Assembly: GCA_963773405.1 (NCBI GenBank)
Contig: CAVZAQ010000002.1
Location: forward strand, 7,116 to 71,115
Direction of reading: 5' to 3'
Source: an uncultured Chloroflexia bacterium
Lineage (GTDB): Bacteria > Chloroflexota > Limnocylindria > QHBO01
Length of the DNA: 64,000 bases
Both the position numbers and the translations under genes were made by a program. The notes under the pieces were generated by a model that worked only from the letters and a program-made list of their open reading frames with translations, was not told where the DNA came from and searched no databases. This document shows positions 17,909 through 56,868 of the stretch, in pieces (the stretch's first letter is position 1; each line of letters begins with the position of its first letter).

Positions 17909-17917
17909 GCTGGCATT

Positions 17918-17927
17918 ATATCGATAT
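17918..17927. promoter_or_regulatory. Perfect 10-bp palindrome ATATCGATAT in an AT-rich patch upstream of arsR; candidate operator or promoter
   Basis: This is the only AT-rich stretch in the area (CATTATATCGATATGGGTCAATATAGCC), 10 nt upstream of the proposed arsR start. Confidence 0.4.
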
Positions 17928-37610: not shown

Positions 37611-37643
37611 CGCCGCGCGCTCCTCGCAGGATCGCGAGCCTAC

Positions 37644-39760: not shown

Positions 39761-39969
39761 AGTCCTATTGGATTCAGCGTGGATTCCTCGTCTCCTGGGA
39801 ACTGGGGGTGATGAGCGAGCTCACAGAGCGCACTCACGGCGCGCATTCACGGCGTGGATTCGCATGCTGCCATTCTTCGTTGACCTCCGGGCGTACGCTC
39901 TGAAAACCGAAGCGACGTGGAGAGAGGCGATGCCGCAGCGATTGATCAAGGGTCTGGGCGGCGGTACAC

Positions 39970-41355: not shown

Positions 41356-41390
41356 CTCAACCGCCGCGAGTAGGTAGATCTCGACTTCGC

Positions 41391-41554
41391 GGCGCTGTGC
41401 GTACAATGCCTTGTCCAGTGTTCCGCTCTCTTTGAGCGTGAAGCGCGCGCCCGTAGCTCAGCGGACAGAGCGGATGGCTTCGGACCAAATCGGCTGATGC
41501 GCTGTGGTTCGAGCGTGACCTTCCGAACGAAACGGGTCGAGTTATCCGCTGTGT
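41391..41554 (+). repeat. Repeat unit 1: promoter-like box plus leader, truncated tRNA-Arg(UCG) 5' half (41447-41487) and a divergent tail
   Basis: GGCGCTGTGCGTACAATG...TTTGAGCGTGAAGC then GCGCCCGTAGCTCAGCGGACAGAGCGGATGGCTTCGGACCA, which is 41 nt identical to 46500-46540. Homology to the tRNA stops after GGACCA. The tail ends CGAGTTATCCGCTGTGT. Confidence 0.85.
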
Positions 41555-41616
41555 CGTAGCGCCGATGGGATGCATACCGCCGTGATGTCCAGCACCTGCC
41601 GCTGGCCTGCGACGGC

Positions 41617-42627
41617 CTATGTGCTGCGCCGCCCGCGACGCCGGCTTCGCTTGTAGGCCGTGACATCGCGCTTCGTTGAGTACCAGAGCCCGTCCTGGTG
41701 AGTCGCCCGCAGTCGACCGGCTTGTGCGGCCCTCCGAAGCGCCAGCAGGCTAAGGTCGCGATCCGCGAGCGCCGACAACGGCAGCAGCCGATGTGGGCCT
41801 GCGAGGGCCGGCAAGAGGAAGCGGTCCAGTCCGTCCTTGACCGCTCGCGCAAGAAGTTCAGCGAGAGACCCTGCGTTCCCTGCATCGGCCCGGCGGAGCG
41901 CTGCCAAGTACCGGGGCCGGTCCCGTTTGTAGATGACGGCGGGCGCATATCCTCGCCGGACGAGCAGCAGGTTCAGGGCCAGGCGACCCGCACGGCCGTT
42001 TCCATCACGGAACGGGTGGATCTGCTCGAATCGAGCATGGAGTCCAGCGAGGTGCTCCATGAGGTGCTGCCCGCCGCGCGGCGCCGCATTGGAGTCCCGG
42101 ATCCAGTCGGTGATGAGCGCGGGGACGTCGGTGAACGGGGGAGGCTGCATGCCACTGGGGAACGCGGCGATGTCGTGCAGGCGGAAGGACCCCGGACCTT
42201 CGCCGGGGGCCAGTTGCTCCGGTGGCTGCACCTTCCACACCCCCTCGATCAGGGTCCGGTGGATCTGTCGCAATTCAGTGATCGTGATGTGGTTGCTCGG
42301 CGCCCAGGCCACTGCCTTCGTTGCCTGCTCATACACCCATTCAGCGGCTTCCGCGTACCCTTGGACCTCGAGGTACTGGGCGAGTTCTTCGTTGCCCACG
42401 GCACGTCCCTCATCGAGCAGGAGCCGCACCTGCTTCAGCACCAGCGTGTTTCCCTCGATCGCGGTCGAGTTATGCGCCTCCTCGTACCAGATGCCCTTCC
42501 AGATGTCGCGTGCCTCGAACGGCGCTGGCAGGCCGCCGATACGGCGGAGCTCGTCGATCTCCCGATCGACTGCTTCGAAGATCGCTGTGCGCGTCGGTCG
42601 GCCACGGTGTGGCATTTCGATCGCCAT
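41617..42627 (-). CDS. Fic-domain protein (class II: N-terminal inhibitory motif plus C-terminal winged-helix-like tail)
   Basis: HPFRDGNGRAGRLALNLLLV is a canonical HxFx(D/E)GNGRxxR motif. STAIEGN matches the (S/T)xxxE(G/N) inhibitory motif. The C-terminus is basic, ...YKRSRRRGRRST. Confidence 0.9.
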   Translation of the reverse strand: MAIEMPHRGRPTRTAIFEAVDREIDELRRIGGLPAPFEARDIWKGIWYEEAHNSTAIEGNTLVLKQVRLLLDEGRAVGNEELAQYLEVQGYAEAAEWVYEQATKAVAWAPSNHITITELRQIHRTLIEGVWKVQPPEQLAPGEGPGSFRLHDIAAFPSGMQPPPFTDVPALITDWIRDSNAAPRGGQHLMEHLAGLHARFEQIHPFRDGNGRAGRLALNLLLVRRGYAPAVIYKRDRPRYLAALRRADAGNAGSLAELLARAVKDGLDRFLLPALAGPHRLLPLSALADRDLSLLALRRAAQAGRLRATHQDGLWYSTKRDVTAYKRSRRRGRRST

Positions 42628-42632
42628 TGGAA

Positions 42633-42722
42633 TTCAGTACGCCTAGCGGGAAATATTGGGATCGTACTGAAGTCTAGTACCAGTTCGGTACGAGCGCGTC
42701 AAGAGAAATCGACCGTACCGAA
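42633..42722. promoter_or_regulatory. Two 39-bp dyads, TTC(A/G)GTAC-N23-GTAC(T/C)GAA, immediately upstream of the Fic start
   Basis: TTCAGTAC (42633-42640) pairs with GTACTGAA (42664-42671). TTCGGTAC (42684-42691) pairs with GTACCGAA (42715-42722). The geometry matches that upstream of the paralogue at 46295-46385. Confidence 0.6.
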
Positions 42723-42804
42723 TTCCCCTCGACTGGTCGATTGGCTGGGCAGCGGTCGAGCGTGACATGTCAGCGGAAGGCGTATACCGACAATACCGCT
42801 CGTC

Positions 42805-42969
42805 GAGCGCTGTGCGACAATGCGGCGTCTGGTTTTCCGCTCTGTTTGAGCGTGAAACGCGCGCCCGTAGCTCAGCGGATAGAGCGGATGGCTTCGGACC
42901 AGAAACCCGATTGCGGTGTGCCTCTCCTCGTGGGATGCCGAGCATTTCGGGCCGAGTTATCCGCTGTGT
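42805..42969 (+). repeat. Repeat unit 2: promoter-like box plus leader, truncated tRNA-Arg 5' half (42861-42901, one D-loop substitution) and a conserved ~68-nt tail
   Basis: GAGCGCTGTGCGACAATG...TTTGAGCGTGAAAC, then GCGCCCGTAGCTCAGCGGATAGAGCGGATGGCTTCGGACCA, then GAAACCCGATTGCGGTGTGCCTCTCCTCGTGGGATGCCGAGCATTTCGGGCCGAGTTATCCGCTGTGT. Confidence 0.85.
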
Positions 42970-43016
42970 TTGCCCTCGATCTCACCCCTCCGTCCCCAGG
43001 CAGCCCCAGGGCGGGG

Positions 43017-44114
43017 TCACTGGAGGGAGGAAACGATCTCGCCTGCAGCCGAGGTCTCGAGGAGACGCGAGCCAAGCAGATAGACTCGGGCCCGCCGGTC
43101 TCCAGACCCGATGAGCCAGCCGCCCGCCACGGCACGGGCCAAGTCTCTGGTCGTGCTCTGCGGGCTGCGACCAGTAAGCGCGATGTAGTCCGATGCGCGC
43201 AGGTGGCGATTGACCCAGGCGAACGCCAGGCCATCGATCATCGACGCCGGGAGGGCGCCCTCGGAGATGGCTCGCCGGATGGCGATCATGATTTCGCCGA
43301 GCCCGCGGATCCGCGCTAGGACGAAATCGGCCGAGTTCAGAAGCGAAGTCAGGAAGTACGAGACGAACGGGGTAGCGTCATACCCAGGCTCGTACGAACG
43401 ACCAACTGCCGTGCGAATCGCGGCAAAGTATGCGGTCCGGTCGAGATCCAGCTGGGCATCAAGGGAGACCAAACCGTCGAGGCCAAAGTCATGGCGGATG
43501 AGGATGAACCGCGACACGGCGCGTGCCGTCCGGCCATTGCCGTCGTTGAATGGGTGGATTGCGAGCAGCTCGAGATGGGCGAGAGCCGCCGCCACCAACG
43601 GACCGTGTCGCGTCGGAGCCGATGTCAGCCATTGGGAGTATTCGCGCATCAGAGACGGGACATCCCCCGACGGTGGCGTGCTGAAGATGGTCCGCCCAGC
43701 GTCGTCGATAACGCGGTTTTCGCCACGTCGGTATTCGCCGGGTGTCAGGAGGGGACTCTGACCCCATAGCACGCGCCGATGAATCTCCCGAATGAAGCCT
43801 TCATCGGGTCCAATCGCTGGCTTGGCTGCGAGTTCATCGACGAGGGCAAGGGCCTCCCGGGTCCCGATAACCTCGCGGGCCTCTCGATCGTTCAGCCGGC
43901 GTCGTTCACCGCCGGCGAGCAGAGCTTCAACTTCCACGTCGGAGAGGGTGTTGCCCTCGATTCGCGTCGTTCCGTGGATGGTCCGTACCCAGGCTCGGTT
44001 GCGAAGCCAGCTGGCGTGAGTAGGGTCGATCGGCAGGTTGCGGAACAGCCAGCGGCGCTGATCCAGGTCCTCAAGGATCCGCCTGAGGCCACGTGAACGG
44101 AGCCGATACCGCAT
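43017..44114 (-). CDS. Fic-domain protein, second type (class II motif, long C-terminal winged-helix region)
   Basis: HPFNDGNGRTARAVSRFILI is the Fic motif, and TTRIEGN is the inhibitory motif. The start is placed at the ATG at 44114 (MRYRLRSRGL), 5 nt after GGGAGGAG. ORF 43017..44222 extends 36 codons further upstream. Confidence 0.85.
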   Translation of the reverse strand: MRYRLRSRGLRRILEDLDQRRWLFRNLPIDPTHASWLRNRAWVRTIHGTTRIEGNTLSDVEVEALLAGGERRRLNDREAREVIGTREALALVDELAAKPAIGPDEGFIREIHRRVLWGQSPLLTPGEYRRGENRVIDDAGRTIFSTPPSGDVPSLMREYSQWLTSAPTRHGPLVAAALAHLELLAIHPFNDGNGRTARAVSRFILIRHDFGLDGLVSLDAQLDLDRTAYFAAIRTAVGRSYEPGYDATPFVSYFLTSLLNSADFVLARIRGLGEIMIAIRRAISEGALPASMIDGLAFAWVNRHLRASDYIALTGRSPQSTTRDLARAVAGGWLIGSGDRRARVYLLGSRLLETSAAGEIVSSLQ

Positions 44115-44125
44115 GCGCTCCTCCC

Positions 44126-44147
44126 GGTAATTGCGGATATTATTACC
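44126..44147. promoter_or_regulatory. Dyad GGTAAT-N10-ATTACC upstream of the second Fic gene
   Basis: GGTAATTGCGGATATTATTACC sits in the only AT-rich patch of this cassette. Confidence 0.4.
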
Positions 44148-44208
44148 GCCCACGGTAGTATTCGCAACCTTTACAGCGTTACGTTCAGACGAGACCATCC
44201 CGCTCCTC

Positions 44209-44373
44209 GAGCGCTGTGGCACAATGCGTCGTCTGGTTTTCCGCTCTGTTTGAGCGTGAAACGCGCGCCCGTAGCTCAGCGGACAGAGCGGGTGGCTTCG
44301 GACCAGAAACCCGGCCGCGGTGTGCCCACCCTCCTGCAGCGCCGACCATTTCGCGCCGAGTTATCCGCTGTGT
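44209..44373 (+). repeat. Repeat unit 3: promoter-like box plus leader, truncated tRNA-Arg 5' half (44265-44305, one A-to-G substitution) and a conserved tail variant
   Basis: GAGCGCTGTGGCACAATG..., then GCGCCCGTAGCTCAGCGGACAGAGCGGGTGGCTTCGGACCA, then GAAACCCGGCCGCGGTGTGCCCACCCTCCTGCAGCGCCGACCATTTCGCGCCGAGTTATCCGCTGTGT. Confidence 0.85.
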
Positions 44374-44377
44374 CCCG

Positions 44378-44794
44378 TCAGTCCGGGAGGAGGAGCAGGG
44401 CGTCGACATGGCGCGGTCGGAGGACACCGAAATGGCGATGGTCGAGCGTCGCCAGCTTCGGCTCATTCAGGCGCTCGACGACTGTCAGCACAGCCGCGTC
44501 GACATAGCCAATGTCGGCATCGGCGTACCGGTCGCACAGCTCGGCGATCCGACGATGATCGTCCGCGCTTAGGTTCACGAGCCCGTACGCTCCGCTCTCG
44601 ATGTCCGCGAGCAACGCGACGAGCACGCCTGGGTGAAGGCTGCGATGGATGAGGTAGTCCACTTCGACGAGCACGGGAGCCGGGATCAGGAGCGGCTCCT
44701 CGCTGCTCTCGATCAGGTGCCGACAGCGAGAATGATCGTCATCACTGCGGTCGAGGGAGGCGTACAGGGGACCGGTATCGAGGATCAGCGCCAC
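44378..44794 (-). CDS. vapC: PIN-domain toxin (VapC family)
   Basis: MALILDTGPLYASLDRSD...LLIPAPVLVEVDYL...GYVDAAVLTVVERL...LATLDHRHF shows the PIN acidic residues. There is a 10-nt overlap with the upstream antitoxin gene. Confidence 0.85.
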   Translation of the reverse strand: MALILDTGPLYASLDRSDDDHSRCRHLIESSEEPLLIPAPVLVEVDYLIHRSLHPGVLVALLADIESGAYGLVNLSADDHRRIAELCDRYADADIGYVDAAVLTVVERLNEPKLATLDHRHFGVLRPRHVDALLLLPD

Positions 44795-45009
44795 GTGCGC
44801 GGCTCAGCCAGCTCGTCGGCCGAGCGGCGAGCGATATCGGCCTTCCCCGACGCACCCGAGCCGATGCTGCGCGGACGCGGCCGGGCAGTCGCCAGCTTCT
44901 CGTCGATGGCCTCGCGCACGATGGTGGCCATCGAGACGCCGCGTTCGGCGGCGAGCCGTCTCAGCCTTCCCCGGAGTTCGGGTGGAATGGTAAGGGTGGT
45001 GCGCTCCAT
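44785..45009 (-). CDS. vapB: Ribbon-helix-helix antitoxin (VapB/CopG-like)
   Basis: MERTTLTIPPELRGRLRRLAAERGVSMATIVREAIDEKL matches the RHH pattern. It lies upstream of and overlaps vapC. Confidence 0.8.
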   Translation of the reverse strand: MERTTLTIPPELRGRLRRLAAERGVSMATIVREAIDEKLATARPRPRSIGSGASGKADIARRSADELAEPRTWR

Positions 45010-45032
45010 GGTGCAATGATAGCAGACGATGC

Positions 45033-45049
45033 ATCACCGCACTGGTGAT
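45033..45049. promoter_or_regulatory. Palindrome ATCACC-gcact-GGTGAT upstream of vapB; candidate operator
   Basis: Perfect 6-bp arms, 24 nt upstream of the vapB ATG. Confidence 0.45.
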
Positions 45050-45071
45050 CTGGCAGACCATATCGCGGTGC

Positions 45072-45236
45072 GAGCGCTGTGCAACAATGCCTCGTCTGGT
45101 TTTCCGCTCGGTTTGAGCGTGAAACGCGCGCCCGTAGCTCAGCGGACAGAGCGGATGGCTTCGGACCAGAAACCCGATTGCGGTGTGCCTCTCCTCGTGG
45201 GACGCGGAGCATTTCGGGCCGAGTTATCCGCTGTGT
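45072..45236 (+). repeat. Repeat unit 4: promoter-like box plus leader, truncated tRNA-Arg 5' half (45128-45168, identical to the intact gene) and a conserved tail
   Basis: GAGCGCTGTGCAACAATG..., then the 41-nt 5' half, then GAAACCCGATTGCGGTGTGCCTCTCCTCGTGGGACGCGGAGCATTTCGGGCCGAGTTATCCGCTGTGT. This tail is nearly identical to that of unit 2. Confidence 0.85.
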
Positions 45237-45280
45237 CTGCCACCTGTAGGAGCCTCCCGCGCGCGGGCCCGCCAAGCGCT

Positions 45281-46291
45281 CTAGATGGCGCGCCGGCCGC
45301 GACGGCGGCTTCGCCGGTAGGCGAGGACATCGCGCTTCGTCGAGTACCAGCGACCGTTCTGGTGAGTCGCGCGGAGTCGGCCCGACTGCGCGGCTCTGCG
45401 CAGGGCCAGCGGGCTGAGGTCCCGCTCAGCCAGGGCTGACAACGGCAGCAGCCGATGCGGGCCGGCGAGGGCCGGCAACAGGAAGCGGTCCAGCCCGTCC
45501 TTGACTGCGCGCGCCACGAGCTCCGCGAGGGACCCGCTGTTACCGCGATCGGCCCGGCGGAGTGCGGCCAGGTACTTCGCGCGGTCCCGCTTGTAGATCA
45601 GGGCGGGCGCGTAGCCTCGCCGCACGAGGAGCAGGTTGAGGGCGAGGCGACCTGCACGCCCATTCCCATCGCGGAACGGATGGATCTGCTCGAAGCGAGC
45701 ATGGAGCGTAGCCAGGTGCTCCATGAGGTGCTGTCCGCTGCGGGGTGCCGCATTCGCGTCCCGGATCCAGTCGCTCATGAGCGCGTGGACGTCGGTGAAT
45801 GGTGGTGGCTTCATCCCGCCGGCAAAGGCGCCGATGTCGTGCAGGCGGAATGACCCTGGCCCTTCCCCGGCGATGAGCTGTTCAGGAGGCTTCACTTTCC
45901 ATACCGCCTCGACCAGGGTTCGGTGGATCTGTCGCAGCTCGGTCAGCGTGATGTGGTCGCTGGGTACCCAGGCCACCGCCTTAGTTGCCTGCTCGTATAC
46001 CCATTCAGCGGCTTCTGCATAGCCTTGGACCTCGAGATACTGCGCGAGCTCTTCATCCCCGACTGCACGTCCTTCTTCGAGCAAGACCCGGACTTGTTTG
46101 AGCAGCAGGGTGTTGCCCTCGATCGCGGTAGAGTTGTGCGCCTCCTCGTACCAGATGCCCGTCCAGATATCGCGTGCCTCAAACGGTGCGGGCAGCCCGC
46201 CGATGCGGCGCATCTCCTCGATCTCGCGATCGACGGCGTCGAAGATGGCGGTGCGCGAGGGGCGGCCGCGCTGCGGCATCTCAATCGGCAC
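45281..46291 (-). CDS. Fic-domain protein, close paralogue of 41617..42627
   Basis: It is colinear with the first Fic and most positions are identical by eye (HPFRDGNGRAGRLALNLLLV, STAIEGN, tail YRRSRRRGRRAI). The start is placed at the GTG at 46291 (VPIEMPQRGRP), by analogy with MAIEMPHRGRP and because the dyads begin 4 nt upstream. Confidence 0.85.
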   Translation of the reverse strand: MPIEMPQRGRPSRTAIFDAVDREIEEMRRIGGLPAPFEARDIWTGIWYEEAHNSTAIEGNTLLLKQVRVLLEEGRAVGDEELAQYLEVQGYAEAAEWVYEQATKAVAWVPSDHITLTELRQIHRTLVEAVWKVKPPEQLIAGEGPGSFRLHDIGAFAGGMKPPPFTDVHALMSDWIRDANAAPRSGQHLMEHLATLHARFEQIHPFRDGNGRAGRLALNLLLVRRGYAPALIYKRDRAKYLAALRRADRGNSGSLAELVARAVKDGLDRFLLPALAGPHRLLPLSALAERDLSPLALRRAAQSGRLRATHQNGRWYSTKRDVLAYRRSRRRGRRAI

Positions 46292-46294
46292 GAG

Positions 46295-46385
46295 TTCGGT
46301 ACATACCTCGCCGGATAATTGGACCGTACCGAATTCTAGCACGTGCTTCGGTACGATGACCTCACAAGAAACCCACCGTACCGAA
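46295..46385. promoter_or_regulatory. Two 39-bp dyads, TTCGGTAC-N23-GTACCGAA, upstream of the Fic paralogue
   Basis: 46295-46302 pairs with 46326-46333, and 46347-46354 pairs with 46378-46385. Confidence 0.6.
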
Positions 46386-46443
46386 TTCCTTCCCGCTGGC
46401 CGAACTGTGAGCTAGATCTGACCCCCAGACCATCCCGCTGTCC

Positions 46444-46499
46444 GAGCGCTGTGGCAGAATGGCTCGGCTGGTCTTCCGCTCGCTTTGAGCGTGAAGCGC
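46444..46499 (+). promoter_or_regulatory. Promoter-like box and leader of the intact tRNA-Arg gene (fifth copy of the repeat)
   Basis: GAGCGCTGTGGCAGAATGGCTCGGCTGGTCTTCCGCTCGCTTTGAGCGTGAAGC is colinear with the four upstream units. The (T/C/G/A)A(C/G)AAT hexamer is a plausible -10 element. Confidence 0.5.
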
Positions 46500-46575
46500 G
46501 CGCCCGTAGCTCAGCGGACAGAGCGGATGGCTTCGGACCATCAGGTCGCGGGTTCGATTCCTGCCGGGCGCGCCA
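46500..46575 (+). tRNA. tRNA-Arg, anticodon UCG, with encoded CCA
   Basis: Manual cloverleaf: acceptor stem GCGCCCG/CGGGCGC, D arm GCTC-AGCGGACA-GAGC, and anticodon arm GATGG-CTTCGGA-CCATC (TCG at 46533-46535). Variable loop AGGTC, T arm GCGGG-TTCGATT-CCTGC, discriminator G, then CCA. Confidence 0.9.
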
Positions 46576-48019
46576 AGAACATAACTTCGGGAAGAGCCAA
46601 CGCCAGTCCGTGGCGGTAAGCCTCGGGCGTGAGCTCGACCTCTCGGACGCCGTCGACGTCAACGACGACCCGGGCGTAGACCGCGCGCAGGAGCCTTGAG
46701 CGAGCCTCCTCGCCGGCGAGGCGCCAGGCGGAACGGAGGTCGCGCAGGGCAGCCACGGCCGAGTCGGGGTCGATTGCCGGGCGAGAGTGGCGTGCTTCCG
46801 AGAGCGCGTCGAGCTCGGCGCTGATGCGTCGATGTTCGGCCAGATAGGCCTCCGTGGTTAGTTGCCGGCGGGCATGTCGGTGGGCGCGCTCCCGGAGTTC
46901 ATGCTCGAGCTGGCGACGGCGGATGGCGGTGCTGGGAACGGGCGCCGCCTCGAGGTTGGCCAGCGCCCGAACGCGAGCCAGGGTCGCGCGGTCGAGCCGC
47001 AGGCCCGTGAGCTGCGCGACCAGCGGGGTCTCGTAGCGCTCGGCGCGGCGGCTCGCTGCCGACCACGCAGGGCACGGCCGGATGTGACGGATCCGGCGGT
47101 AGACGTAACCCTTGGGGGTGGCGATGTCGCAGCGCAGTCGAGCGCCACACGCGGCGCAGAAGGCGCGGCCGGAGAGCGGGTGGATCCGCCCGGAGCGTGG
47201 ACCGCCGCCGCGCGACCTCACACCCCGGACCTCGGCCACCTGCGCCCACAGCTCGTCAGAGACGGGCGGATGCGACCGCCACGGCGCGGGTGCGCGCTGC
47301 TCGTGCCGTGAGCGCCGGTGGCGCACCGCCCAGCCGTTGTACAGGGGGTTGCGCAGGATGGCGCGGATCGCGTCGGCGCGCATGCCGGTCTCGGCCTCAA
47401 GGGCAGTTAGGCTCCAGTCTCCGGTGGCATAGAGCTCGAAAAGCGCAACCGCTCGTGGCATGCTCCCTGGGTCGATCACCAGCCGTGCATCCGGGGCAGG
47501 CGTGCGGCGGAAGCCGAGCCCGGGCGACCCACCCTGATCGCCGAGCCGGAACTTGGCGGCGTAGCCCTCGGCGATGCGCCGCGCTAGGCGTCGGCTGTAG
47601 GCCTCGGCCTCGACCGCCTCGCGGGCCCAGCGCTCCCAATGATCCTCGTCGGAACTGAGCAGTTCCTCGTCGCAGAAGAGGAGAGCGGCGCCGGCGGCGT
47701 GCAGATCGTCCCGGACGTTGACCGCCGTCTTCAGATTGCGCGCGAAGCGGCTGACGTAACCGACCAGCAGGACGTCATATCCCTCGCCGGCGGTGGCCAG
47801 CATCTCCGCGAACGCGGCGGTGTTCGCCACGGTGCGACCCGAGTGGGCGACCTCCCAAGCCAGTCCCGTGTCCACCAAGCCCCAGCGTTCCAGGGCACGG
47901 TCCTGCTGGGCTCGTTGGGCGGCCGGTCCATAGCGGTCGGCCTGGCCGTGCGTGCTCTCGCGTATCCAGCGCGCGGCACGTAGACCATGGAGTTCGTCGA
48001 GCGATCCCGGGAGGTTCAT
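46541..48019 (-). CDS. Large serine recombinase (resolvase domain, recombinase domain, zinc ribbon, coiled coil)
   Basis: RAARWIRESTHGQ (catalytic Ser), VLLVGYVSRFARN, NPLYNGW, CAACGARLRC. The ATG is at 48019, after GAGGAAGGG. The last 11 codons (ARPAGIEPAT*) are encoded antisense to the tRNA 3' half. The stop codon is at 46541-46543. Confidence 0.85.
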   Translation of the reverse strand: MNLPGSLDELHGLRAARWIRESTHGQADRYGPAAQRAQQDRALERWGLVDTGLAWEVAHSGRTVANTAAFAEMLATAGEGYDVLLVGYVSRFARNLKTAVNVRDDLHAAGAALLFCDEELLSSDEDHWERWAREAVEAEAYSRRLARRIAEGYAAKFRLGDQGGSPGLGFRRTPAPDARLVIDPGSMPRAVALFELYATGDWSLTALEAETGMRADAIRAILRNPLYNGWAVRHRRSRHEQRAPAPWRSHPPVSDELWAQVAEVRGVRSRGGGPRSGRIHPLSGRAFCAACGARLRCDIATPKGYVYRRIRHIRPCPAWSAASRRAERYETPLVAQLTGLRLDRATLARVRALANLEAAPVPSTAIRRRQLEHELRERAHRHARRQLTTEAYLAEHRRISAELDALSEARHSRPAIDPDSAVAALRDLRSAWRLAGEEARSRLLRAVYARVVVDVDGVREVELTPEAYRHGLALALPEVMFLARPAGIEPAT

Positions 48020-48382: not shown

Positions 48383-49522
48383 TCACGGTGACTGCATCTC
48401 CAGGTACCGCCGGAACAGTGGGTCCGCCACTTCGTAGCGGCCGCGGCGACCGTTCGCCAGTCGACGGATGTGCCCAGCGGCGGCCAGCCTTCGGAGCGCT
48501 TGGCGTGTGGCGGGCGGAGCAACACCGGCTCGGCGAGCGAGCCCCTCGACGTCACGGGATCGCAGCGGCTCGTTGCCGTCGGCGAGGAGGCGGACTACGG
48601 CCTGCTCCGACGGAGCCATGGCGTTCCATCGGCCGACGAAGATCTCCTGGCTGACGGTCGCGAAGGCGCGTTCGAACCCTATCCCATACTCGGCCTCGCC
48701 GACATGGCCGTCCACGGCAGCATCGAAGGCGTGATAGGCCAGCTTCTGGAGGTAGTACGGGCGGCCGGCCGATGCCCGCGCCATGTCAGCCAGTACCTTT
48801 GGTTCGAACGTGACGCCGGTCCCTTGGAGGGGTATCGCGATAGCACGTTCCGTGTCGTGCTCGTCGAGCGGGCCAAGGGTCAGGGGCTCGTAGTAACGGA
48901 TGAGGGACTCATGCGCCGAACCGACGCCCGCGAACAGGGACGGCGTGGCGGCGACGACGAGTGCGATCGGCAGGTCGTTGGCGTAGAGCTCCAGGCAGAT
49001 GGCCCGGAGTCGCAGTAGCACATCCCTCCCGCCCGCCAGTAGGTCAATGTCGTCAACGAGGATGGACGCTAGGGCGTTGCGGTCGTGCTGGCGTTTGGCC
49101 AAGCGCTCGATGGCGGCTCGGAGGACTTGCGGGGCCGGTTCGCCGAAGGACTGGCGCACTTTCGCGGTTGCGAGGCCCAGACTGACTCCGACCTCCACGT
49201 CTCGGGTTTGGTCCGCTCCCGCAGTCGGATCAGCCTCGATGGCTAGGCGCAGTCCGTCCAGGAAGTCGCCGACCGGCTGCGGGTAGGCGAGCGTTAGCAC
49301 AACGGCATCGCCGAGGTCCCGCAGGAGCCGGCGCCAGTGCATGAGCAGTGTCGTCTTGCCGATCGCCCATTCGCCGAGCAGCGCGGTGTGGTGCGGATGG
49401 CCCTCGCGTGTCCGCGCGATCCGCGCCATCGCGATCTCCGTCTCTCGCTCTCGACCGGCGAGGAGCGGCGGGAAGATGCCGCTGCCGGGCCGGAACGGAT
49501 TCTCAGGCTGAATTTGTGACAA
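48383..49522 (-). CDS. P-loop ATPase (Arch_ATPase/ORC-like) with a C-terminal winged helix
   Basis: NPFRPGSGIFPPLLAGRERE, Walker A GEWAIGKTTL, Walker B SILVDDID, and C-terminal ...RQALRRLAAAGHIRRL. The start is probably the TTG at 49522, 9 nt after AGGAG; the ORF track opens at the TTG at 49531. The first codons lie in a TGTGACAAC x2 direct repeat. Confidence 0.7.
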   Translation of the reverse strand: MSQIQPENPFRPGSGIFPPLLAGRERETEIAMARIARTREGHPHHTALLGEWAIGKTTLLMHWRRLLRDLGDAVVLTLAYPQPVGDFLDGLRLAIEADPTAGADQTRDVEVGVSLGLATAKVRQSFGEPAPQVLRAAIERLAKRQHDRNALASILVDDIDLLAGGRDVLLRLRAICLELYANDLPIALVVAATPSLFAGVGSAHESLIRYYEPLTLGPLDEHDTERAIAIPLQGTGVTFEPKVLADMARASAGRPYYLQKLAYHAFDAAVDGHVGEAEYGIGFERAFATVSQEIFVGRWNAMAPSEQAVVRLLADGNEPLRSRDVEGLARRAGVAPPATRQALRRLAAAGHIRRLANGRRGRYEVADPLFRRYLEMQSP

Positions 49523-49619
49523 CTGTGACAACTCCTGTCACGAACGACTCTGGTTGGATGGGCCGGGGAGCGCCGTGGGCGCCTCCCCGGCCCGATTCAT
49601 CACCTCATCGGTAACCGCC

Positions 49620-50318
49620 CTACGCCGCCGGTCTGCCCTGCCGCAGCCACGAGCGCGAGCGCATCGCGTTGGCGACCACGTCGAGGTAGACCTCGGAGTA
49701 GGACACGCTGCCGCGCTCGAGCACCGCCCAGGCGCAGTTGAGCATCGCGCTGGCGACCATCAGGTTGGTGACCACCAGCTGCGGTCGCTCCTCGGCCTGT
49801 CGCTCGCAGCCGTTGCGGGCCGCGAACTCGGACTCGCTCGCCCGGCCGATCTCCGCGTGGATCTCGGCCAGGCTGCCGTCGAGGGACGCACCGCCCCGGC
49901 GGCGGACGAGCTGGACGTTGCCGTCCGTCTCGTCGTTGCCGCCGGAGATCAGGGTCACCTCGTCGAGGGTGGCCAGGTGCCGATCGACCACGAAGCGGGT
50001 CCAGTGGTTGTCGACCGCCAGCAGGACCAGGTCGCCGGAGCGGATGACCGCCCCGACGTTCTCGTCCGTCAGGTAGTCGGCCACCGCCTGGACCGTCAGC
50101 CCTCCGCGGTACGCCTCGGCCAAGGCCTCGGCCTTGTTCGAGCCGATGGCGGACTCGGGGAAGAGCTGCCGCGTCCGGTTGCCGGGCTCGTAGGCGTCGC
50201 CGTCGACGAGCACCAGCACCGGTCGCGGTTCGGGTTTGGCGGCCAGGTAGCGGACCAGGCTGGGCACCAGCTGTGAGCCGATGCCGCCCAGCCCCACGAG
50301 GACGATGCGGTCAAGCAT
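49620..50318 (-). CDS. ThiF/E1-like adenylyltransferase, short (232 aa), PRTRC-ThiF-like
   Basis: IVLVGLGGIGSQL is the Rossmann GxGGxG motif, followed by VLVDGDAYEPGNRTRQLF. The ATG follows GAAGGGAGGAAC and overlaps the upstream stop. Confidence 0.8.
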   Translation of the reverse strand: MLDRIVLVGLGGIGSQLVPSLVRYLAAKPEPRPVLVLVDGDAYEPGNRTRQLFPESAIGSNKAEALAEAYRGGLTVQAVADYLTDENVGAVIRSGDLVLLAVDNHWTRFVVDRHLATLDEVTLISGGNDETDGNVQLVRRRGGASLDGSLAEIHAEIGRASESEFAARNGCERQAEERPQLVVTNLMVASAMLNCAWAVLERGSVSYSEVYLDVVANAMRSRSWLRQGRPAA

Positions 50319-51157
50319 CGCTGGTTCCTCCCTTCGTGGCTGATGTCGCGATCGGCGTCAGCTGGTAGACCAGGCTCTCGCCCAGCTCGCTGGCCAGCTC
50401 GGTCGCCTCGGTGAGGAGGCGGTCGAGCGTCGTTCGGTCGCGCCAGGTCCAGCTCGGGATCGTCCAGCTGGACGATCCATTCGGTCTTGGCGCTCCCGTT
50501 CGACCTGCCCTTCTTCTTCGGTGGCGCGGTCGCCAGCGGCTTCACCCGCTCCAGCCAGTCGGCCGGAGGGTCGGAGAAGCGCCGCGGCCGCTCGAAGGCG
50601 AGCGACGTCCGGCAGCCGAAGCGCCGGCCGTCGACCACGATCGACGCCGAGTAGCTGACCCGCCGTTGGTCGACGTCGCCGACCACGACGTGGATGCCGT
50701 CGAAGTCGGCCTCGTCGGCCTCATCGGTCAGGCTGGCCCCGGCGCTCAGCGCGCCGTGGCTGTGGATCGAGCCGACCAGGCGTGCCGTCGAGGGCACGTC
50801 GGCGGGCGCGAGCCGATGCTTGACCGATGCGACCCCGGCGCGCTGCTCGGGGACGATGAGGCCAAAGGCTTCGCCGTCCCAGGTGAACAGCGCCAGGGCC
50901 TCGGTCTTCCTCGCGCGCCAGATGGCGCGGAAGAAGCCGACCGCCTGACCCATCAGCGCGGCGGGCACCTTGGGTAGCGCGTACTCGAGGTACTCGCGCG
51001 CCGGGGGCAGGTGGGCCACGGTCTCGACCTGCACCTGCGATAGCCCCAGGAGGCTGCGCTTGCGCAGGTAGAGCCCGTCGCGGGCCACCAGGAAGGCGGG
51101 GAGGGCGAGCTCCCCGGCGGCCGACTCGTCGACCGCCACGATCGGGAACAGGCTCAT
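50311..51157 (-). pseudogene. JAB/MPN (JAMM) metalloprotease with one apparent frameshift near 50440
   Basis: RKTEALALF...GSIHSHGALSAGASLTDEADE is the complete E...HxHx7Sx2D motif. After ...LDDPELDL the coherent reading (RDRTTLDRLLTEATELASELGESLVYQLTPIATSATKGGTSDA*) is in the next frame and ends at 50311. Confidence 0.75.
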
Positions 51158-51429
51158 CGCCCCGCCTCCTCGCCGCCGGAGCGTTCCGGCAGCCAGTACA
51201 CGATCCGCTCGAGGTGAGCGAACTTGTGACTGGCGGCCAGTCGCTCGTCGCGGAGGGGGAAGCCTCCGTCGCGCAGCAGCTTGGCGGCGACGGCGAAGGC
51301 CGCCGACGCCAGCTCGCCGGGAAGCGAGCCGTCGGTGGCGTACACCGCGCGCCGCGGCGTCAGCAGGCTCGAGGCCCGCGTCAGCTCGACGTGCGGCAGA
51401 CGCCCCACCGTCTCAAGCAGCCGCCGCAT
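51154..51429 (-). CDS. Small conserved-looking protein of the Ubl operon (hypothetical, 91 aa)
   Basis: The ATG is 8 nt after AAGGAGG. There is an ATGA overlap with the JAB gene. No motif was recognised. Confidence 0.55.
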   Translation of the reverse strand: MRRLLETVGRLPHVELTRASSLLTPRRAVYATDGSLPGELASAAFAVAAKLLRDGGFPLRDERLAASHKFAHLERIVYWLPERSGGEEAGR

Positions 51430-52192
51430 CGGCGCCACCTCCTTGCGGAGCTGGCGCCTGGTCCGGCGCCGGTGTCTCCACCGTCGCCTGCGGCTGTCCG
51501 CTGCGCGGCGCGCCCGGCAGGTCCTCGGGACTCATGCCGGCCGCCGCGGCCACCACCTGGCGCAGGCTGCGCCAGTAGCGGTCGTATTGGGCCGACAGCC
51601 CCGCCAGCGGGTCACGCCGTGAACGAGACGCCCAGGCCCTGAACCCTCCGGAGAACGGCAGCGGATGGCGCCGGATGTCGGCGTTGAAGCGGCTGCTCCA
51701 GAAGGCACCGATCAGCCCCTCGATGCGCTCGACCAGGCTGTCACCGCCCACGTGCACCGTGCCGAGACAGACGATCCCGTCGTCGGAGGTGTTGGGCAGG
51801 CAGCTGTGCTCGAGCGCGTCGTCGAGGCTGGCCAGCGGGCTGGTGCGGAAGAAGTTCGACAGGCCCTCGACGCGGCCCGCCTGAACCGAGACCACGAACA
51901 CCACGTACGGCAGCGAGACCCGGTGGCTGACCGGCTCGGAGCCATAGCGGTTGGATGCGTGGTACTCGACCTGGCGGCGCATCGGGAGCTGTTCGATGAC
52001 GAACACCTCCCGCCCCTCGGGAGAGCGAACCCAGAAGCGGCAGCCGGCGGGCAGGATTCCCGTGCACGCCGACCGCTGCTCGGCCAGCCGGTTCAGCAGG
52101 TCGTCGAGCGCGACTTCGCGCTCGGTCACCTCGCTCACCAGCGTGGCCAGGTCGCCCTCGATGCGCAGGTACTTGCGCGAATGCATGGACAT
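51413..52192 (-). CDS. E2/UBC-like protein (PRTRC protein B-like)
   Basis: CLPNTSDDGIVCLG resembles the E2 HPN...G.(I/V)CL active-site signature, with the Cys about 10 residues after PN. The ATG follows GAGAGGAG. The tail is Pro/Ala-rich. Confidence 0.55.
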   Translation of the reverse strand: MSMHSRKYLRIEGDLATLVSEVTEREVALDDLLNRLAEQRSACTGILPAGCRFWVRSPEGREVFVIEQLPMRRQVEYHASNRYGSEPVSHRVSLPYVVFVVSVQAGRVEGLSNFFRTSPLASLDDALEHSCLPNTSDDGIVCLGTVHVGGDSLVERIEGLIGAFWSSRFNADIRRHPLPFSGGFRAWASRSRRDPLAGLSAQYDRYWRSLRQVVAAAAGMSPEDLPGAPRSGQPQATVETPAPDQAPAPQGGGADAAAA

Positions 52193-52282
52193 CGCGAGCT
52201 CCTCTCTTCGAGAACCGATGGCGGCCGTCGGCGCACCCGTCGGGTGTACCCCCGGCCGCCGTCGGCTCTGCCGTCGGTGTCG

Positions 52283-52525
52283 TCAGGCCGCGAGGCCCTT
52301 GACGCCGGCCGGCTTGAGGAACTCGATCTCGTCACCGGGACGCACGATGTGGTCGTCGGCCACGACCTGGCCGTTGACCCGCACCGTCGTCTCGCGCGGC
52401 AGGTTGAGCACCTGCTCGAGCATCTTCCAGATGCCGCGGATGCTCTTGCCGCCGAGGTCGAGGCCCAGCTCGTTGACGCCGTACACGACCTTGACGGCCG
52501 TGTCCGTGTCCTCGTAGGTCTGCAC
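52283..52525 (-). CDS. Ubiquitin-like beta-grasp protein (ThiS/MoaD/PRTRC protein C-like, 80 aa)
   Basis: The GTG at 52525 lies 7 nt after AAGGAG. The sequence is VQTYEDTDTAVKVVYGVNELGLDLGGKSIRGIWKMLEQVLNLPRETTVRVNGQVVADDHIVRPGDEIEFLKPAGVKGLAA. Its size, the VNG...V...GDEIEF pattern and its position ahead of E2/JAB/E1 fit a Ubl. The C-terminus is KG-LAA rather than a free GG. Confidence 0.6.
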   Translation of the reverse strand: MQTYEDTDTAVKVVYGVNELGLDLGGKSIRGIWKMLEQVLNLPRETTVRVNGQVVADDHIVRPGDEIEFLKPAGVKGLAA

Positions 52526-52980
52526 GATGGATCTCCTTGTGCTTTGCGAGAGTCGCGAACACGAAAAAGGACCGGGCAGCATCCACGAGGTGCGTTCGCC
52601 GACCACCTCGTTCGCCGATACCGCACGCGGCGGCCGAATCCCGGTCCGGTGAGCGCTCGAAGACGAACGATCACCGGCGGGCGCTCGCCGCCGGTGTCGA
52701 CCGATAGTGGTGAGGCAACCCTCCTTTCTGCGGCGCGGAGTCGTCCGCCACCGACATCGGAGTGAGGCCCGACCCTCGCCGGTCGCACCTGCGGAGGTGC
52801 ACCTGGAGCCGAGATGCGGCCCGACGCGCCCGCTCCTGCGTTGAGAGCGAGCCGCGACCGAGCCGATCCGAGCATCCGAGGAGCGTTCCTCACAGATGAC
52901 CGATCAGCTGGCCGGGCCCACTCCGGGTGGGGGCGGAAGCGCCGTGCTGCTGCATGCGGTTCGCGCGGGTTGAGGTGCGC
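52526..52980 (-). promoter_or_regulatory. Leader copy R1: ~455-nt candidate structured 5' leader RNA upstream of the Ubl gene, ending in a terminator-like helix plus U-tract
   Basis: It fills the whole HTH-Ubl intergenic region and is colinear with 53424-53880. Indels between the two copies break every reading frame. Conserved hairpins include GCGGA-N4-TCCGC, CGAGGTG-N-CACCTCG and CCGC-N5-GCGG. A GGACCGGG...CCCGGTCC helix is followed by TTTTTC (plus-strand 52564-52647). Confidence 0.5.
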
Positions 52981-53004
52981 GACCCGGGCGACGAGCGCGA
53001 GCGG

Positions 53005-53346
53005 TTAGCGAAGGCCGAGAAGGCGGTCGATGTCGGCCGCTTCGAGCTCTTCGTCGAGCTCACGCAGGTCGCGCCGGATCGCGGCCGCGAGCTCCAATGC
53101 CTGGCGTCGCAGCCGCCAGAGCTGCTCCCGATTGCAGCGGAGCCGCTCGTTGGGCTCCGGCGTGCCGAGGTACTCCCCGACCGCGGGGAGGCGTGTCCGG
53201 ATCTGACTGATCCGGGCGGCGCTGACGCCGAGGCGTCCAGCGATCTGACGATTGCTGTAGCCGGCATCGAGCAGCTCGGCGACCGTGCGCGCCTGGTCGA
53301 TGAAGCGCGGGCTGAGCGGCAGGCCGCGACCGTTGTGCGCGGTCAT
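53005..53346 (-). CDS. Small HTH DNA-binding protein (sigma-r4/Hin-like HTH plus coiled coil)
   Basis: MTAHNGRGLPLSPRFIDQARTVAELLDAGYSNRQIAGRLGVSAARISQIRTRL, then a charged helical tail. The long upstream extension in ORF 53005..54372 is leader copy R2, not coding sequence. Confidence 0.65.
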   Translation of the reverse strand: MTAHNGRGLPLSPRFIDQARTVAELLDAGYSNRQIAGRLGVSAARISQIRTRLPAVGEYLGTPEPNERLRCNREQLWRLRRQALELAAAIRRDLRELDEELEAADIDRLLGLR

Positions 53347-53423
53347 GGCCGTACCGCCCGAGGCTCGCGCCCCACCGTCGGCAGTGGAGGTCGACGGCGT
53401 CGAACTCCCTCGTGACGGTGCAC

Positions 53424-53880
53424 GCTCGATCTCCTTGTGCTGGCGAGGTGTCGCGAACACGAGAAAAGGACCGGGTGAGCGCCACGAGGTGCGTTCGCGT
53501 AGGTACCACCTCGTTTCGCGGATGCCGCACGTTGCGGCCGAGTCCCGGTCCGATGAGCGCTCGAATGAGAACGACCACCGGCGGGCGCTCGCCGCCGGCG
53601 CAGACCGTTGGCGGGGAGGCATCCCTCCTTTCTCGACGCGGAGACTTCCGCCACCGAGGTCGAAGCGAGGCCTGCCGCCGCCGGTCGCACCTGCGATGAA
53701 GCACCTGATGTCCGAGATCAGCCCGACGCCCCCGCCCTCATTCGAAGAGCGAGCCGCGACCGAGCCGATGCGGACATCGAAAGGAGCTGTCCTCGCCGAT
53801 GGACCGATCGAGCGGCCTGGCCCGTCCCGAGTCGGGGCGAACGCGCCGTGAAGCTGCAGGCGGATCGCGCGAATCGAGGT
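53424..53880 (-). promoter_or_regulatory. Leader copy R2: second copy of the ~455-nt candidate leader RNA, upstream of the HTH gene
   Basis: It has the same block order as R1 and ends ...CCCGGTCCTTTTCTCGTGTTCGCGAC...AGCACAAGGAGATCGAGCGTG. One stem shows G-C and A-U pairs in R1 replaced by G-U pairs in R2 (CCGGTGA/TCACCGG against CCGGTGG/TCATCGG). Confidence 0.5.
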
Positions 53881-54230
53881 CTGAAAAGCGCGAATGGCAG
53901 CGTGTATGCGGTTGGTAAGGTGCGCTGTCGCCGTTGGAGCGCTGTTGGCTCCGGCGCCGCCACTGGTTGGATCGCGACCCGATGAGGGTCGTGGGAGTCC
54001 ATGGCGGGGGACTCCGCCAGGCCTCGATGTGAGGCGATGGCGGCGGCCGGTCGTCTGAAAGGTCCACAACCGGGACGGCGCGGCCGCCGACTCATACGCT
54101 AGTCCGGCGCGGGACAGAAAGCAATAGAAAGTGTGTACATTTCGGTGTACGTTCGAGCACAAAGGAGCTTGGGAGGTGTCGTCAAGGCACTGAGGGGGAA
54201 CCCGACGCGCCGGTTGACCAGCGGTGGCAG

Positions 54231-54250
54231 AATAGAACGCCCGTTCTATT
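54231..54250. promoter_or_regulatory. Perfect palindrome AATAGAAC-gccc-GTTCTATT
   Basis: 8-bp arms, 11 nt upstream of the small plus-strand ORF. It sits in the divergent control region, next to the only AT-rich patch of the element (54115-54160). Confidence 0.45.
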
Positions 54251-54261
54251 GAGGTTCGCCG

Positions 54262-54432
54262 ATGAACGCGATGCGCTGCTGGTACCGAGGCTGCCTGGAG
54301 CAAGGTGATCCGCGCCCGTTGTTCGCGCAGGCTCATGGCTTGCCGGCTGCCATTCGACTCTGCGACCGCCACATGGCCGAGCTGGCACGAGACCGTGACC
54401 CGGCTTGGGCGATCGAGCGACCACGGATGTGA
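54262..54432 (+). CDS. Small Cys/His-containing protein (56 aa, hypothetical); the only plus-strand gene in the element
   Basis: MNAMRCWYRGCLEQGDPRPLFAQAHGLPAAIRLCDRHMAELARDRDPAWAIERPRM. GAGG lies 7 nt upstream. It is below the 60-aa cutoff of the ORF track. The CxxxC...CxxH pattern could bind zinc. Confidence 0.4.
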   Translation: MNAMRCWYRGCLEQGDPRPLFAQAHGLPAAIRLCDRHMAELARDRDPAWAIERPRM

Positions 54433-54435
54433 TGA

Positions 54436-55032
54436 CTACTCGCGGGGTGTCTTACCCTCAGCCTCTGAGGGTTCCTCGCTTGGCCCGTCGTGAGGATCGA
54501 GCCATTCGGCACCGGCGTCGCGTCGGCCGGCGCGAATATCCGCCGCGAACGATCGCAATCGTTCGACGTGGCTTTCCCTGAGCCCCGACCGGGGGTAGAC
54601 ATCCACCAGCAAGGTTGGGATGCCCAGCTCGGTACGTCGCCAGTGCGACCAATACCGCGCGTCCGACGAGAGATCGTCGTCGATCCAGGCTGCAGGACGG
54701 TCGCGGACGAAGGCGATGACGTCCGGCAGCTTGAGCGTGTAGCCCTCGAACGTCGGGTCGGGCGGCGTGAACGTGATGAACGGCAACTCCGGCAACCCGA
54801 TCAGCGGACCGATGAGGAGGTTTGCATCGGCCTCCCAGGTGGTGGCCCACACCAGCTCGAACTCCTTGCCGAGCTCTCGCAGCCACTCGCCATGCGTCGG
54901 CGAGAGCAGCACCCGCATCCCCGCGAGACGGTGCTCGTCGAATCCGTCTGGCACCGAGTCCGCCGTGAACGGGTTCAGCACACCGTCGATATCGACCAGC
55001 AGGAGCGGCTTCTGCGCCGCCGCCTGGGTCAT
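54436..55032 (-). CDS. HAD-superfamily hydrolase
   Basis: LLLVDIDGVLNPF is the DxDG(V/T) motif I, followed by ...WATTWE...AAWIDDD. Confidence 0.7.
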   Translation of the reverse strand: MTQAAAQKPLLLVDIDGVLNPFTADSVPDGFDEHRLAGMRVLLSPTHGEWLRELGKEFELVWATTWEADANLLIGPLIGLPELPFITFTPPDPTFEGYTLKLPDVIAFVRDRPAAWIDDDLSSDARYWSHWRRTELGIPTLLVDVYPRSGLRESHVERLRSFAADIRAGRRDAGAEWLDPHDGPSEEPSEAEGKTPRE

Positions 55033-55304
55033 GGATCGGCCGCCAGCCGCGTGAAGCCGAGATCGGGTAATCGCGTTGGTTGCGTAACTCCCTTGCAGCC
55101 TTCGATGTTCACTGCGAGATCGTACCTACCCGCGAGACGCGGCGATCTCGCCCGGCGTGAGGAGAGCGCGCCCACGCGGCTCGGCGCCGATACCTCGTCT
55201 TCCAACATCGCGTTGTTGCAGCGGAGAGCCGATGCTCGACGCGCAGGTGCCGGTAGGCAGCGGTGGCTGATTCCCGCGGAGTAGGGGGATCAGAGCGCAA
55301 CCCT

Positions 55305-55802
55305 TCAGCGTGTGCTAGAACCGCCCAGGAGTGCGGGCACCTCGACCGTCACGTCGAGATCTGGCCAGCTGATGTGCTGTCCGTCGGCGCTGACCTTCCA
55401 GCGCTGGAGGGCGCTCATCGGCGCATCGCGCAATGCCGGGAACCAGGTCAGCGGTGCACCCAGCTCAGCCTGATCGCGGAACACGATGTAGAGGCGGCTG
55501 TCGGTGAAGCGCACAGCTGCCGCCTGCAGCGTTCCCAACGAGCGCTGCCGACGCGGCAGTCCGCCCAAGAACTCGGCCGGCTCACGGCCCAGGCGCTCGG
55601 CTAGGTAGAAGAGCGAGGCCACCGAGGGTTTGGCGTGTCCACACTCCAAGGCACTGATGTAGGCCGGGGTGTAGCGCGGGCCGGCGAGTTGTCGCTGGGT
55701 CAGCCCGGACTCGATCCGCGCGGAGCGGATGCGAGCGCCCACCGCGTGCGCGATGGCGGTTTGATCGACAAGCACGACCTGGCGGCGCTTCCGGTCTGGC
55801 AT
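55305..55802 (-). CDS. XRE-family HTH protein fused to a DUF2442-like C-terminal domain
   Basis: The ATG is at 55802. GARIRSARIESGLTQRQLAGPRYTPAYISALECGHAKPSVASLFYLAERLG is the HTH_3 region. The C-terminal part reads ...VSADGQHISWPDLDVTVEVPALL. Confidence 0.7.
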   Translation of the reverse strand: MPDRKRRQVVLVDQTAIAHAVGARIRSARIESGLTQRQLAGPRYTPAYISALECGHAKPSVASLFYLAERLGREPAEFLGGLPRRQRSLGTLQAAAVRFTDSRLYIVFRDQAELGAPLTWFPALRDAPMSALQRWKVSADGQHISWPDLDVTVEVPALLGGSSTR

Positions 55803-55851
55803 GAAGTGATGGTAGCGTCGCCGTCGAGTAGGAGACGATCTCGCCGCCGGG

Positions 55852-56727: not shown

Positions 56728-56868
56728 ACCAGCCGTCCCGTCACGAAGCTGGGGGTTTCTCGTTCGGATCGACTCGTTCGATCCGCGCTGGAACGAGTGA
56801 TCCAACGAGTAACCGAGCGTGTGATCCAACGAGGAACCGAACGCGGACCATCCGCGGCGCGACCTTGC

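Follow-up and report, generated by a model that had tools for sequence, protein, structure and literature searches.

How does a bacterial locus come to hold five copies of the 5' part of one tRNA gene, of which four lead not into a tRNA but into a small gene cassette? The question is posed by an array at the tRNA-Arg(UCG) gene in a 64-kb stretch of DNA (the window, to which all coordinates refer unless another locus is named) from Candidatus Limnocylindria, an abundant uncultured soil lineage of Chloroflexota. The answer bears on the way in which this lineage assembles a hypervariable islet of defence and accessory genes. The array was probably formed by tandem accretion, at the anticodon loop of the tRNA gene, of small integrase-less derivatives of mobile elements; as part of the same reading, the cassettes would be integrase-less relatives of a tyrosine-integrase family that bring their own promoter-like block and tRNA 5' half. 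Positions 1-38 of the tRNA are present five times on the plus strand, all in direct orientation, with no match expected in shuffled sequence. These copies had been described in a first-pass annotation made from the sequence alone, and its statements that copies 1, 4 and 5 are identical in the tRNA part, that copies 2 and 3 carry one change each, that the spacing is 1414, 1404, 863 and 1372 nt (here from start to start) and that only the fifth copy is a real tRNA (found by ARAGORN; Rfam, 66.9 bits) were all reproduced. Each of copies 1-4 runs instead into a tail of ~69 nt. One cargo module, always on the minus strand and therefore antisense to the repeat, as had also been reported, is enclosed between each tail and the next upstream block. 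The resulting cassette units are 0.86-1.4 kb long, and every one has both arms, a complete tail at one end and an upstream block with the 5' half at the other. The array as a whole is bounded by the full tRNA gene and displaced fragments of it in the same orientation (Table 1).

The copies do end at one fixed base, as had been noted, although not after 41 nt of the tRNA. Identity stops at position 38, the last base of the anticodon loop. With the next three bases, 'CCA', the tail consensus (CYA) begins, and their match to the stem is due to chance. The break lies at 38|39 in 47 of 47 distinct junctions, covering three tRNA-Arg(UCG) alleles, and likewise in the CCG and UCU isoacceptors. Colicin D reportedly cuts tRNA-Arg at the same bond, presumably a coincidence with the usual anticodon-loop integration site. 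The consensus of the tail reads CYA-N~11-GCGCTGTGGC-NN-GAGCGTG-N~20-CCGAGTT(A/T)TCCGCTGT. Its end, CGAGTTATCCGCTGTGT, occurs four times in the window, where none is expected by chance, and CCGAGTTATCCGCTGT is invariant across the 47 junctions. The tails of copies 2-4 had been recognised correctly, with 38-52 bits against the family profile; copy 1, which was thought to keep the end of the tail only, has a full one and scores 59 bits. The tails show no relation to the tRNA 3' half. In both arms, strong enrichment with a common orientation is seen for three motifs, GCGCTGTG, GAGCGTG and (A/T)TCCGCT(C/G)T, which are candidate arm-type integrase sites.

A conserved block of ~70-110 nt precedes each 5' part and contains a GAGCGCTGTG box, an ACAAT-type -10-like box and a leader hairpin, CCGCTC-N4-5-GAGCGTG. 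Of the earlier description as a promoter-like box, the conserved block with its -10-like sequence stands; a sigma-70 consensus scan of the block gave no match, and the promoter is a putative one. The tRNA after the junctions has this element-type leader in 12 of 13 arrays, and the upstream region of the leftmost junction is of another, native type in 8 arrays.

The same locus was compared in related genomes, and the loci are referred to by L numbers. The promoter-side flank (PCC and a MacB-type ABC transporter) is syntenic in L001, L005, L008, L066, L069 and L070, with 66-78% identity. No cassette is present at the syntenic locus in the first four of these, two are present in L069 and in L070, and four in the window; over the related genomes the count at this locus is 0, 1, 2 or 4. 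Cassette number, order and cargo all differ, and empty sites exist, as the first-pass annotation had anticipated. In L001 the segment from the neighbouring large serine recombinase (LSR) gene to the tRNA is 100% identical to the window, and the upstream block just 83%. In L069 the block corresponding to 45215-46575 (distal tail, the Fic gene of the last cassette, upstream block and tRNA) is ~97% identical to the window with flanks at 78%, and the proximal tail resembles window tail 3.

The tail, too, is found in other genomes. A scan of metagenomes with the pattern CTTCGGA-N45-70-CGAGTTWTCCGCTGT returned 43 contigs, of which ~38, from soil and sediment, carry true junctions of 5' half and tail. 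They hold cargo of very different kinds (Kelch proteins, binding-protein-cyclases, ECF sigma factors, PD40, beta-lactamase and LCAT-like proteins), and the same tail with its cargo was found behind at least three different upstream blocks. Among the 88 open reading frames (ORFs) on the 38 junction contigs there was no recombinase, save an integrase remnant in L098. In four soil metagenomes, cassettes 2-4 are covered 3-5 times as deeply as the flank, cassette 1 and the LSR gene, and many alternative continuations set in precisely where the tail ends and where the upstream block starts. One contig of run X4 joins window position 42967 to 44208, that is, the tail end directly to the upstream block without cargo; this 'empty' unit of ~190 bp consists of the att arms alone.

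The architecture of the array recurs in elements that do encode an integrase. L007 has a 9-kb insert between a native-type junction of 5' half and tail and an element-type leader with tRNA. Its integrase (Phage_integrase, 6.9e-24, with a SAM-like N-terminal domain) lies 110 nt from the tRNA and diverges from it, and the insert also encodes an AAA_25 protein and an AbiTii protein. The integrase belongs to a Xer-like tyrosine family of more than 1900 members of ~315 aa, and further loci of this family are listed in Table 1. L007, L131, L132 and L138 are bounded by a full tRNA next to the integrase, with an element-type leader, and by a displaced 5' half in the same orientation at the far end. 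L140, in which the 5' half is joined to non-tRNA sequence, represents an unintegrated, attP (element attachment site) form. In L098 a canonical tail and a cyclase cargo are followed by residues 26-72 of an integrase of the family, an N-terminal remnant that ties the tail family of the window to this integrase and points to loss by deletion. The autonomous elements L131 and L132, of 7.5-9.8 kb, look like phage satellites by their gene content (int, HTH, an AAA_25 replication-type ATPase, HNH, large terminase, small unknown ORFs).

On this basis the following course of events can be proposed. The parent elements would encode a Xer-like integrase of ~315 aa beside the attachment site, and in their attP an element-specific tail of ~69 nt would be linked to tRNA positions 1-38 preceded by the upstream block, a probable promoter with a leader hairpin. 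The integrase, probably of the L007/L132 type, would exchange strands within the 7-nt anticodon loop. An incoming circle would bring tail, cargo, upstream block and 5' half, and its insertion would place the element between the resident 5' and 3' halves. The tail would then follow the resident promoter and 5' half, and the promoter and 5' half that the element brought would be linked to the resident 3' half and drive the regenerated tRNA. Since later insertions would hit the live tRNA, units would be stacked with the newest nearest to it; the cargo of the tRNA-proximal unit, Fic3, is shared nearly unchanged with L069, in agreement with this order. Each internal junction of the array would re-create a complete attP-like sequence. 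The units in the window have no integrase and would therefore have arisen by deletion. Serial insertion of integrase-less mini-elements had been one suggestion of the first-pass annotation, and it is retained as far as the own upstream block and 5' part, the stacking at the anticodon loop, the regenerated tRNA and the variation among relatives are concerned; what has to be given up is the adjacent serine recombinase as the enzyme acting in trans.

Several observations weigh against tandem accretion by relatives of these elements. No tyrosine integrase of the family was found by tblastn in the 64-kb window or its cassettes, and no circular or excised mini-cassette was found among Logan short-read contigs, which break in the repeat. 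Compared with the tail family of the window, L131 and L007 have tails of weak relationship or none. Conservation of the tail peaks 53-68 nt away from the crossover and the first 14 nt vary, an unexpected pattern that a simple Xer-like core site would not give, and no recognisable arm-binding domain, as arm-type sites would call for, was found in the integrase. The window and L069 share a block that sets in within the distal tail (~45215) and not at the breakpoint, so that tails and cargo must have been reshuffled, by homologous recombination or another event. Finally, all five upstream blocks in the window are of the element type and the native left junction is absent; it must therefore have been lost, perhaps together with the PAS-EAL and BBE genes at 37781-41355. 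These two genes, a PAS-EAL gene (37781-39760) and a FAD/BBE oxidase gene (39970-41355), lie in the region 37610-41390, which is flanked by the syntenic PCC gene and the first repeat. The tRNA region of relatives comes within 0.01-1.5 kb of PCC. To the left of the two genes no recognisable 5' half or tail is present, and the segment may be an older insertion whose junction was lost.

If the array arose by accretion, its units could either be mobilised in trans by the integrases of autonomous relatives or be fixed relics that are exchanged by homologous recombination, and the balance between the two is about even. Mobilisation by a relative is hinted at, indirectly, by the Fic3 cassette shared with L069 and by the excess depth of cassettes. 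In the most far-reaching form of the former, the ~1-kb units would be live non-autonomous cassettes, each a minimal attP (tail, upstream block and 5' half) with one gene. Xer-like integrases that satellite-like relatives supply in trans would capture and release them at the anticodon loop. Because each internal junction would be a complete attP, excision and re-insertion could then affect any single cassette or several in a row. We put this forward tentatively and with less than even confidence. If it were true, soil Chloroflexota would own a tRNA-anchored, integron-like platform that shuffles defence and accessory genes, and every insertion would also re-promote the tRNA. Mobile mini-cassettes would make a compact natural cassette system with defined sites of ~250 bp.

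The opposite explanation, that the units are dead relics of full integrase-bearing elements which decayed in place to one gene each and are shared by vertical descent and homologous recombination via the ~180-nt repeats, seems doubtful. The integrase remnant beside the canonical cassette of L098 and the indels in some of the older 5' halves would be expected from it, homologous exchange would account for the start of the L069 block within the tail, and a route of this kind is documented for cis-mobilizable elements, CIMEs (PMC5704250). However, four independent decays to one clean minimal form would be needed, with complete arms, one gene and no integrase fragments. The finding of one tail and cargo behind three or more upstream blocks, the excess depth of cassettes in the community and the existence of the 'empty' joint between tail and upstream block also speak against it.

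It is improbable that upstream block, 5' half and tail are instead functional RNA genes, for example decoys of anticodon nucleases or antisense regulators of the convergent cargo, and the earlier suggestion of functional RNAs made of a tRNA half and a tail is not upheld. Such a function would explain why the conserved upstream block is kept in each unit and why the tail end does not vary in 47 junctions. The tail end is also complementary to tRNA positions 23-37, strongly so in the main alleles and in L132, but in allele c, in L007 and in the CCG and UCU types the complementarity does not exceed the cross-family background (RNAduplex). RNAalifold on the 47 junctions gave -5.5 kcal/mol with 0 compensatory pairs, and no attC-like folded structure. 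Older 5' halves, e.g. in L085, L090, L093 and L113, carry indels or stem-breaking substitutions by which the acceptor and D stems decay. No transcript of this kind was present in two RNA runs, where small RNAs would be missed, and the cargo of other arrays is not toxin-like.

Still less probable is capture of the cassettes at the tRNA by the adjacent LSR, in the manner of an integron integrase. The LSR gene does abut the live site, its stop codon coincides with the breakpoint, and extra 5' halves occur at seven LSR-linked loci. The LSR belongs to a large family of ~500 aa in metagenome-assembled genomes of Candidatus Limnocylindria and other Chloroflexota, which was followed through 84 loci (L001-L084). 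In ~60 of the 84 the 3' end of the gene overlaps an antisense tRNA-Arg, with anticodon CCG, UCG, UCU, CCU or GCG; tRNA-Lys or tRNA-Val are rare targets, and in 38 loci a PrimPol/helicase gene lies upstream. At ten loci no full tRNA follows the gene. The last ~16-23 nt of the tRNA (…TCCTGTCGGGCGCGCCA) adjoin it there, preceded by other element DNA that is conserved between the loci; these are unintegrated (attP) forms. As they keep only ...(T)CCTGTCGGGCGCGCCA beside the LSR, its crossover lies in the T-loop/acceptor region, ~20 nt 3' of the cassette breakpoint. The coincidence of the stop codon with the breakpoint is an accident of frame, because the ORF reads through the chromosomal tRNA to a TGA in the anticodon stem. 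Furthermore, L085, L090, L093 and L114 have an array and a full tRNA with no LSR over the 0.6-2.3 kb of contig past the tRNA, and L069 has the same cassette beside an LSR of just 45% identity to that of the window. The tyrosine integrases fit the site that the LSR does not. As a last alternative, an assembly artefact or simple tandem duplication is hardly credible: the short-read contigs break inside the repeat, so that the cassette order in the window cannot be verified with them, but every unit has its own unique cargo, the tails are unrelated to the tRNA 3' half and many independent assemblies show the same architecture.

The LSR is part of a separate, unrelated element of conjugative type that integrates at the 3' end of the tRNA, and is outside the cassette system. 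Its ORF spans the attachment site, and integration therefore changes its C-terminus. The right end of the element lies beyond the window. No displaced tRNA 3' half marking a far end was found in the window, nor within 10 kb at any locus. A literature search for serine integrases at tRNA genes brought up nothing specific, and the family extends to LSRs a class of targets once regarded as reserved for tyrosine integrases. Mx8 and SSV provide known cases of an integrase gene reaching across attP (cited in PMC4383910); as in the window LSR, the ORF crosses the attachment site and integration alters the C-terminal codons, except that the LSR is a serine and not a tyrosine recombinase. A derivation of the cassette tail from a decayed tRNA 3' half with the LSR 3' end, or from the left arm of an LSR attP, was considered and rejected, as a profile of 43 tails matched no LSR end and no attP (nhmmer); resemblances, to a TTCGGG anchor and of GAAACCCGATTG to the attP of L048, are by eye only. 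Among the genes of the LSR element, 49620-52606 encodes a ThiF-type E1 (PADLOC E1-E2 hits), a 353-aa protein with a faint JAB match, Prok-E2_D and a ThiS-like protein, adjoined by an AAA_16/PaaX-like ATPase. This ubiquitin-like module looks like Bil/CBASS-type defence cargo, and the gene set is also found upstream of the LSR in L013, L014, L058 and L075. In L069, a second, truncated LSR (residues 2-334; 824-1777 of that locus) lies ~9 kb upstream of the intact one and may reflect stacking or decay of LSR elements 3' of the tRNA. A tyrosine-integrase element and an LSR element flank one tRNA-Arg in L139 and L136, so that occupation of this tRNA from both sides recurs.

The cargo of the four cassettes consists of three Fic genes and a vapBC-type pair. 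The Fic proteins match the single-gene defence model SoFic, down to 5.8e-40. Each module had been credited with a dyad operator of its own, which is borne out for Fic1 and Fic3 by clear dyad repeats, TTCGGTACG/CGTACCGAA, upstream of them; upstream of Fic2 and vapBC none were detected at the settings applied. Near-identical fragments of Fic2 (43816-43966) and vapC (44379-44664) are present in soil metatranscriptome contigs (runs X8 and X9), and these cargo genes are therefore expressed in the field.

Table 1. Positions of the array components, the cargo genes and the LSR element in the window, and loci of the tyrosine-integrase family
Feature	Sequence	Coordinates	Strand	Remarks
tRNA 5' parts, 38 nt	window	41447-41484, 42861-42898, 44265-44302, 45128-45165, 46500-46537	+	mismatches 0, 1, 1, 0, 0
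Repeat unit 1	window	41391..41553	+	attL/attP-like junction; element-type upstream block and leader 41391-41446, 5' part 41447-41484, tail 41485-41553
Cargo 1, Fic-domain protein (SoFic-like; Fic1)	window	41617..42627	-	dyads TTCGGTACG/CGTACCGAA upstream, 42630-42742
Repeat unit 2	window	42789..42968	+	upstream block and leader, 5' part 42861-42898, tail 42899-42968
Cargo 2, Fic-domain protein (Fic2)	window	43017..44222	-	best SoFic match, 5.8e-40; start codon uncertain
Repeat unit 3	window	44193..44372	+	upstream block and leader, 5' part 44265-44302, tail 44303-44372
Cargo 3, vapBC-type pair	window	44378..45009	-	PIN toxin 44378-44794, RHH antitoxin 44785-45009
Repeat unit 4	window	45056..45235	+	upstream block and leader, 5' part 45128-45165, tail 45166-45235
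Cargo 4, Fic-domain protein (Fic3)	window	45281..46342	-	paralogue of cargo 1
Upstream block with intact tRNA-Arg(UCG)	window	46428..46575	+	element-type upstream block and leader 46428-46499; tRNA 46500-46575, the live target site
Large serine recombinase, 492 aa	window	46541..48019	-	Resolvase domain; last 12 codons antisense to chromosomal tRNA
Body of LSR-bearing conjugative-type element	window	48383..59229	-	AAA_16 ATPase, E1/E2/ThiS-like ubiquitin-like module, HTH proteins, Replic_Relax, FtsK/HerA-type ATPase
Integrase diverging from tRNA-Arg(UCG)	L131	element 10001-19712		displaced 5' half 9.8 kb away
Integrase diverging from tRNA-Arg(UCG)	L132	element 10001-17437		displaced 5' half 7.5 kb away; int-HTH-AAA_25-HNH-TerL between
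Elements starting as in L131/L132	L134, L136			far end out of range
Integrase at tRNA-Lys	L128
Integrase at tRNA-Val	L138 (IMG/VR)			displaced 5' half
Integrase at tRNA-Arg(CCG)	L139 (IMG/VR)			LSR on opposite side
Integrase beside tRNA-Gly 5' half	L140 (IMG/VR)			5' half joined to non-tRNA sequence

The first-pass annotation had known of no described system with this architecture, which was too strong a statement, as 5' tDNA fragments at islands (PMC4383910), arrays in tandem and CIME-type elements that lack an integrase (PMC5704250) are all on record. Islander counts 5' tDNA fragments in 159 of its 3919 islands and also has an anticodon-centred class of attP (PMC4383910). With the anticodon-loop sublocation of such tRNA-gene islands (Islander/Williams) the array shares the tRNA target, the anticodon-loop crossover, the restored gene, the displaced direct fragment and the tandem arrangement; in its autonomous relatives, again as in such islands, the integrase lies beside the regenerated tRNA. 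It differs from most of them in that the 5' part with a promoter-like block is replaced, which is the rule in a minority class only (PMC4383910), and in that the units of the window are of ~1 kb and without integrase. A whole integrase clade replacing the promoter-proximal half of a tRNA gene represents a rarely discussed mode, in which an essential tRNA comes under the control of a mobile element, and here one tRNA gene is used from two sides by two unrelated recombinase families.

The CIMEs known from site-specific accretion, with ICESt1/ICESt3 of Streptococcus thermophilus as examples (reviewed in PMC5704250), have like the window units lost their integration genes and kept their att sites, stand in tandem at one target and originate by deletion, which is indicated here by the L098 remnant. 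In contrast to them, four units stand in a row in the window, each with att arms and one gene and on the 5' side of the tRNA, and their mobility is putative. The tycheposons of Prochlorococcus, which use tyrosine and rarely large serine recombinases at tRNA genes (bioRxiv 10.1101/2020.12.28.424599), also comprise cargo and satellite-like elements at a tRNA, successive insertions that displace older ones, and scattered partial tRNAs and remnants. The likeness is architectural only; they belong to another phylum, the units here are much smaller and the repeated part is the 5' half with its promoter-like block. Integrons, too, line up single-gene cassettes in order, with a conserved recombination-site repeat between them and the most recent one at the live site, but the array has no IntI, no attI/Pc platform and no attC-like fold or covariation in its repeats, each cassette has its own regulatory region, and the cargo is antisense to the repeat. 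The array is neither an integron nor an LSR cassette system. It behaves as a tRNA-gene island system of the anticodon-loop class, with accretion as in CIMEs or tycheposon islands.

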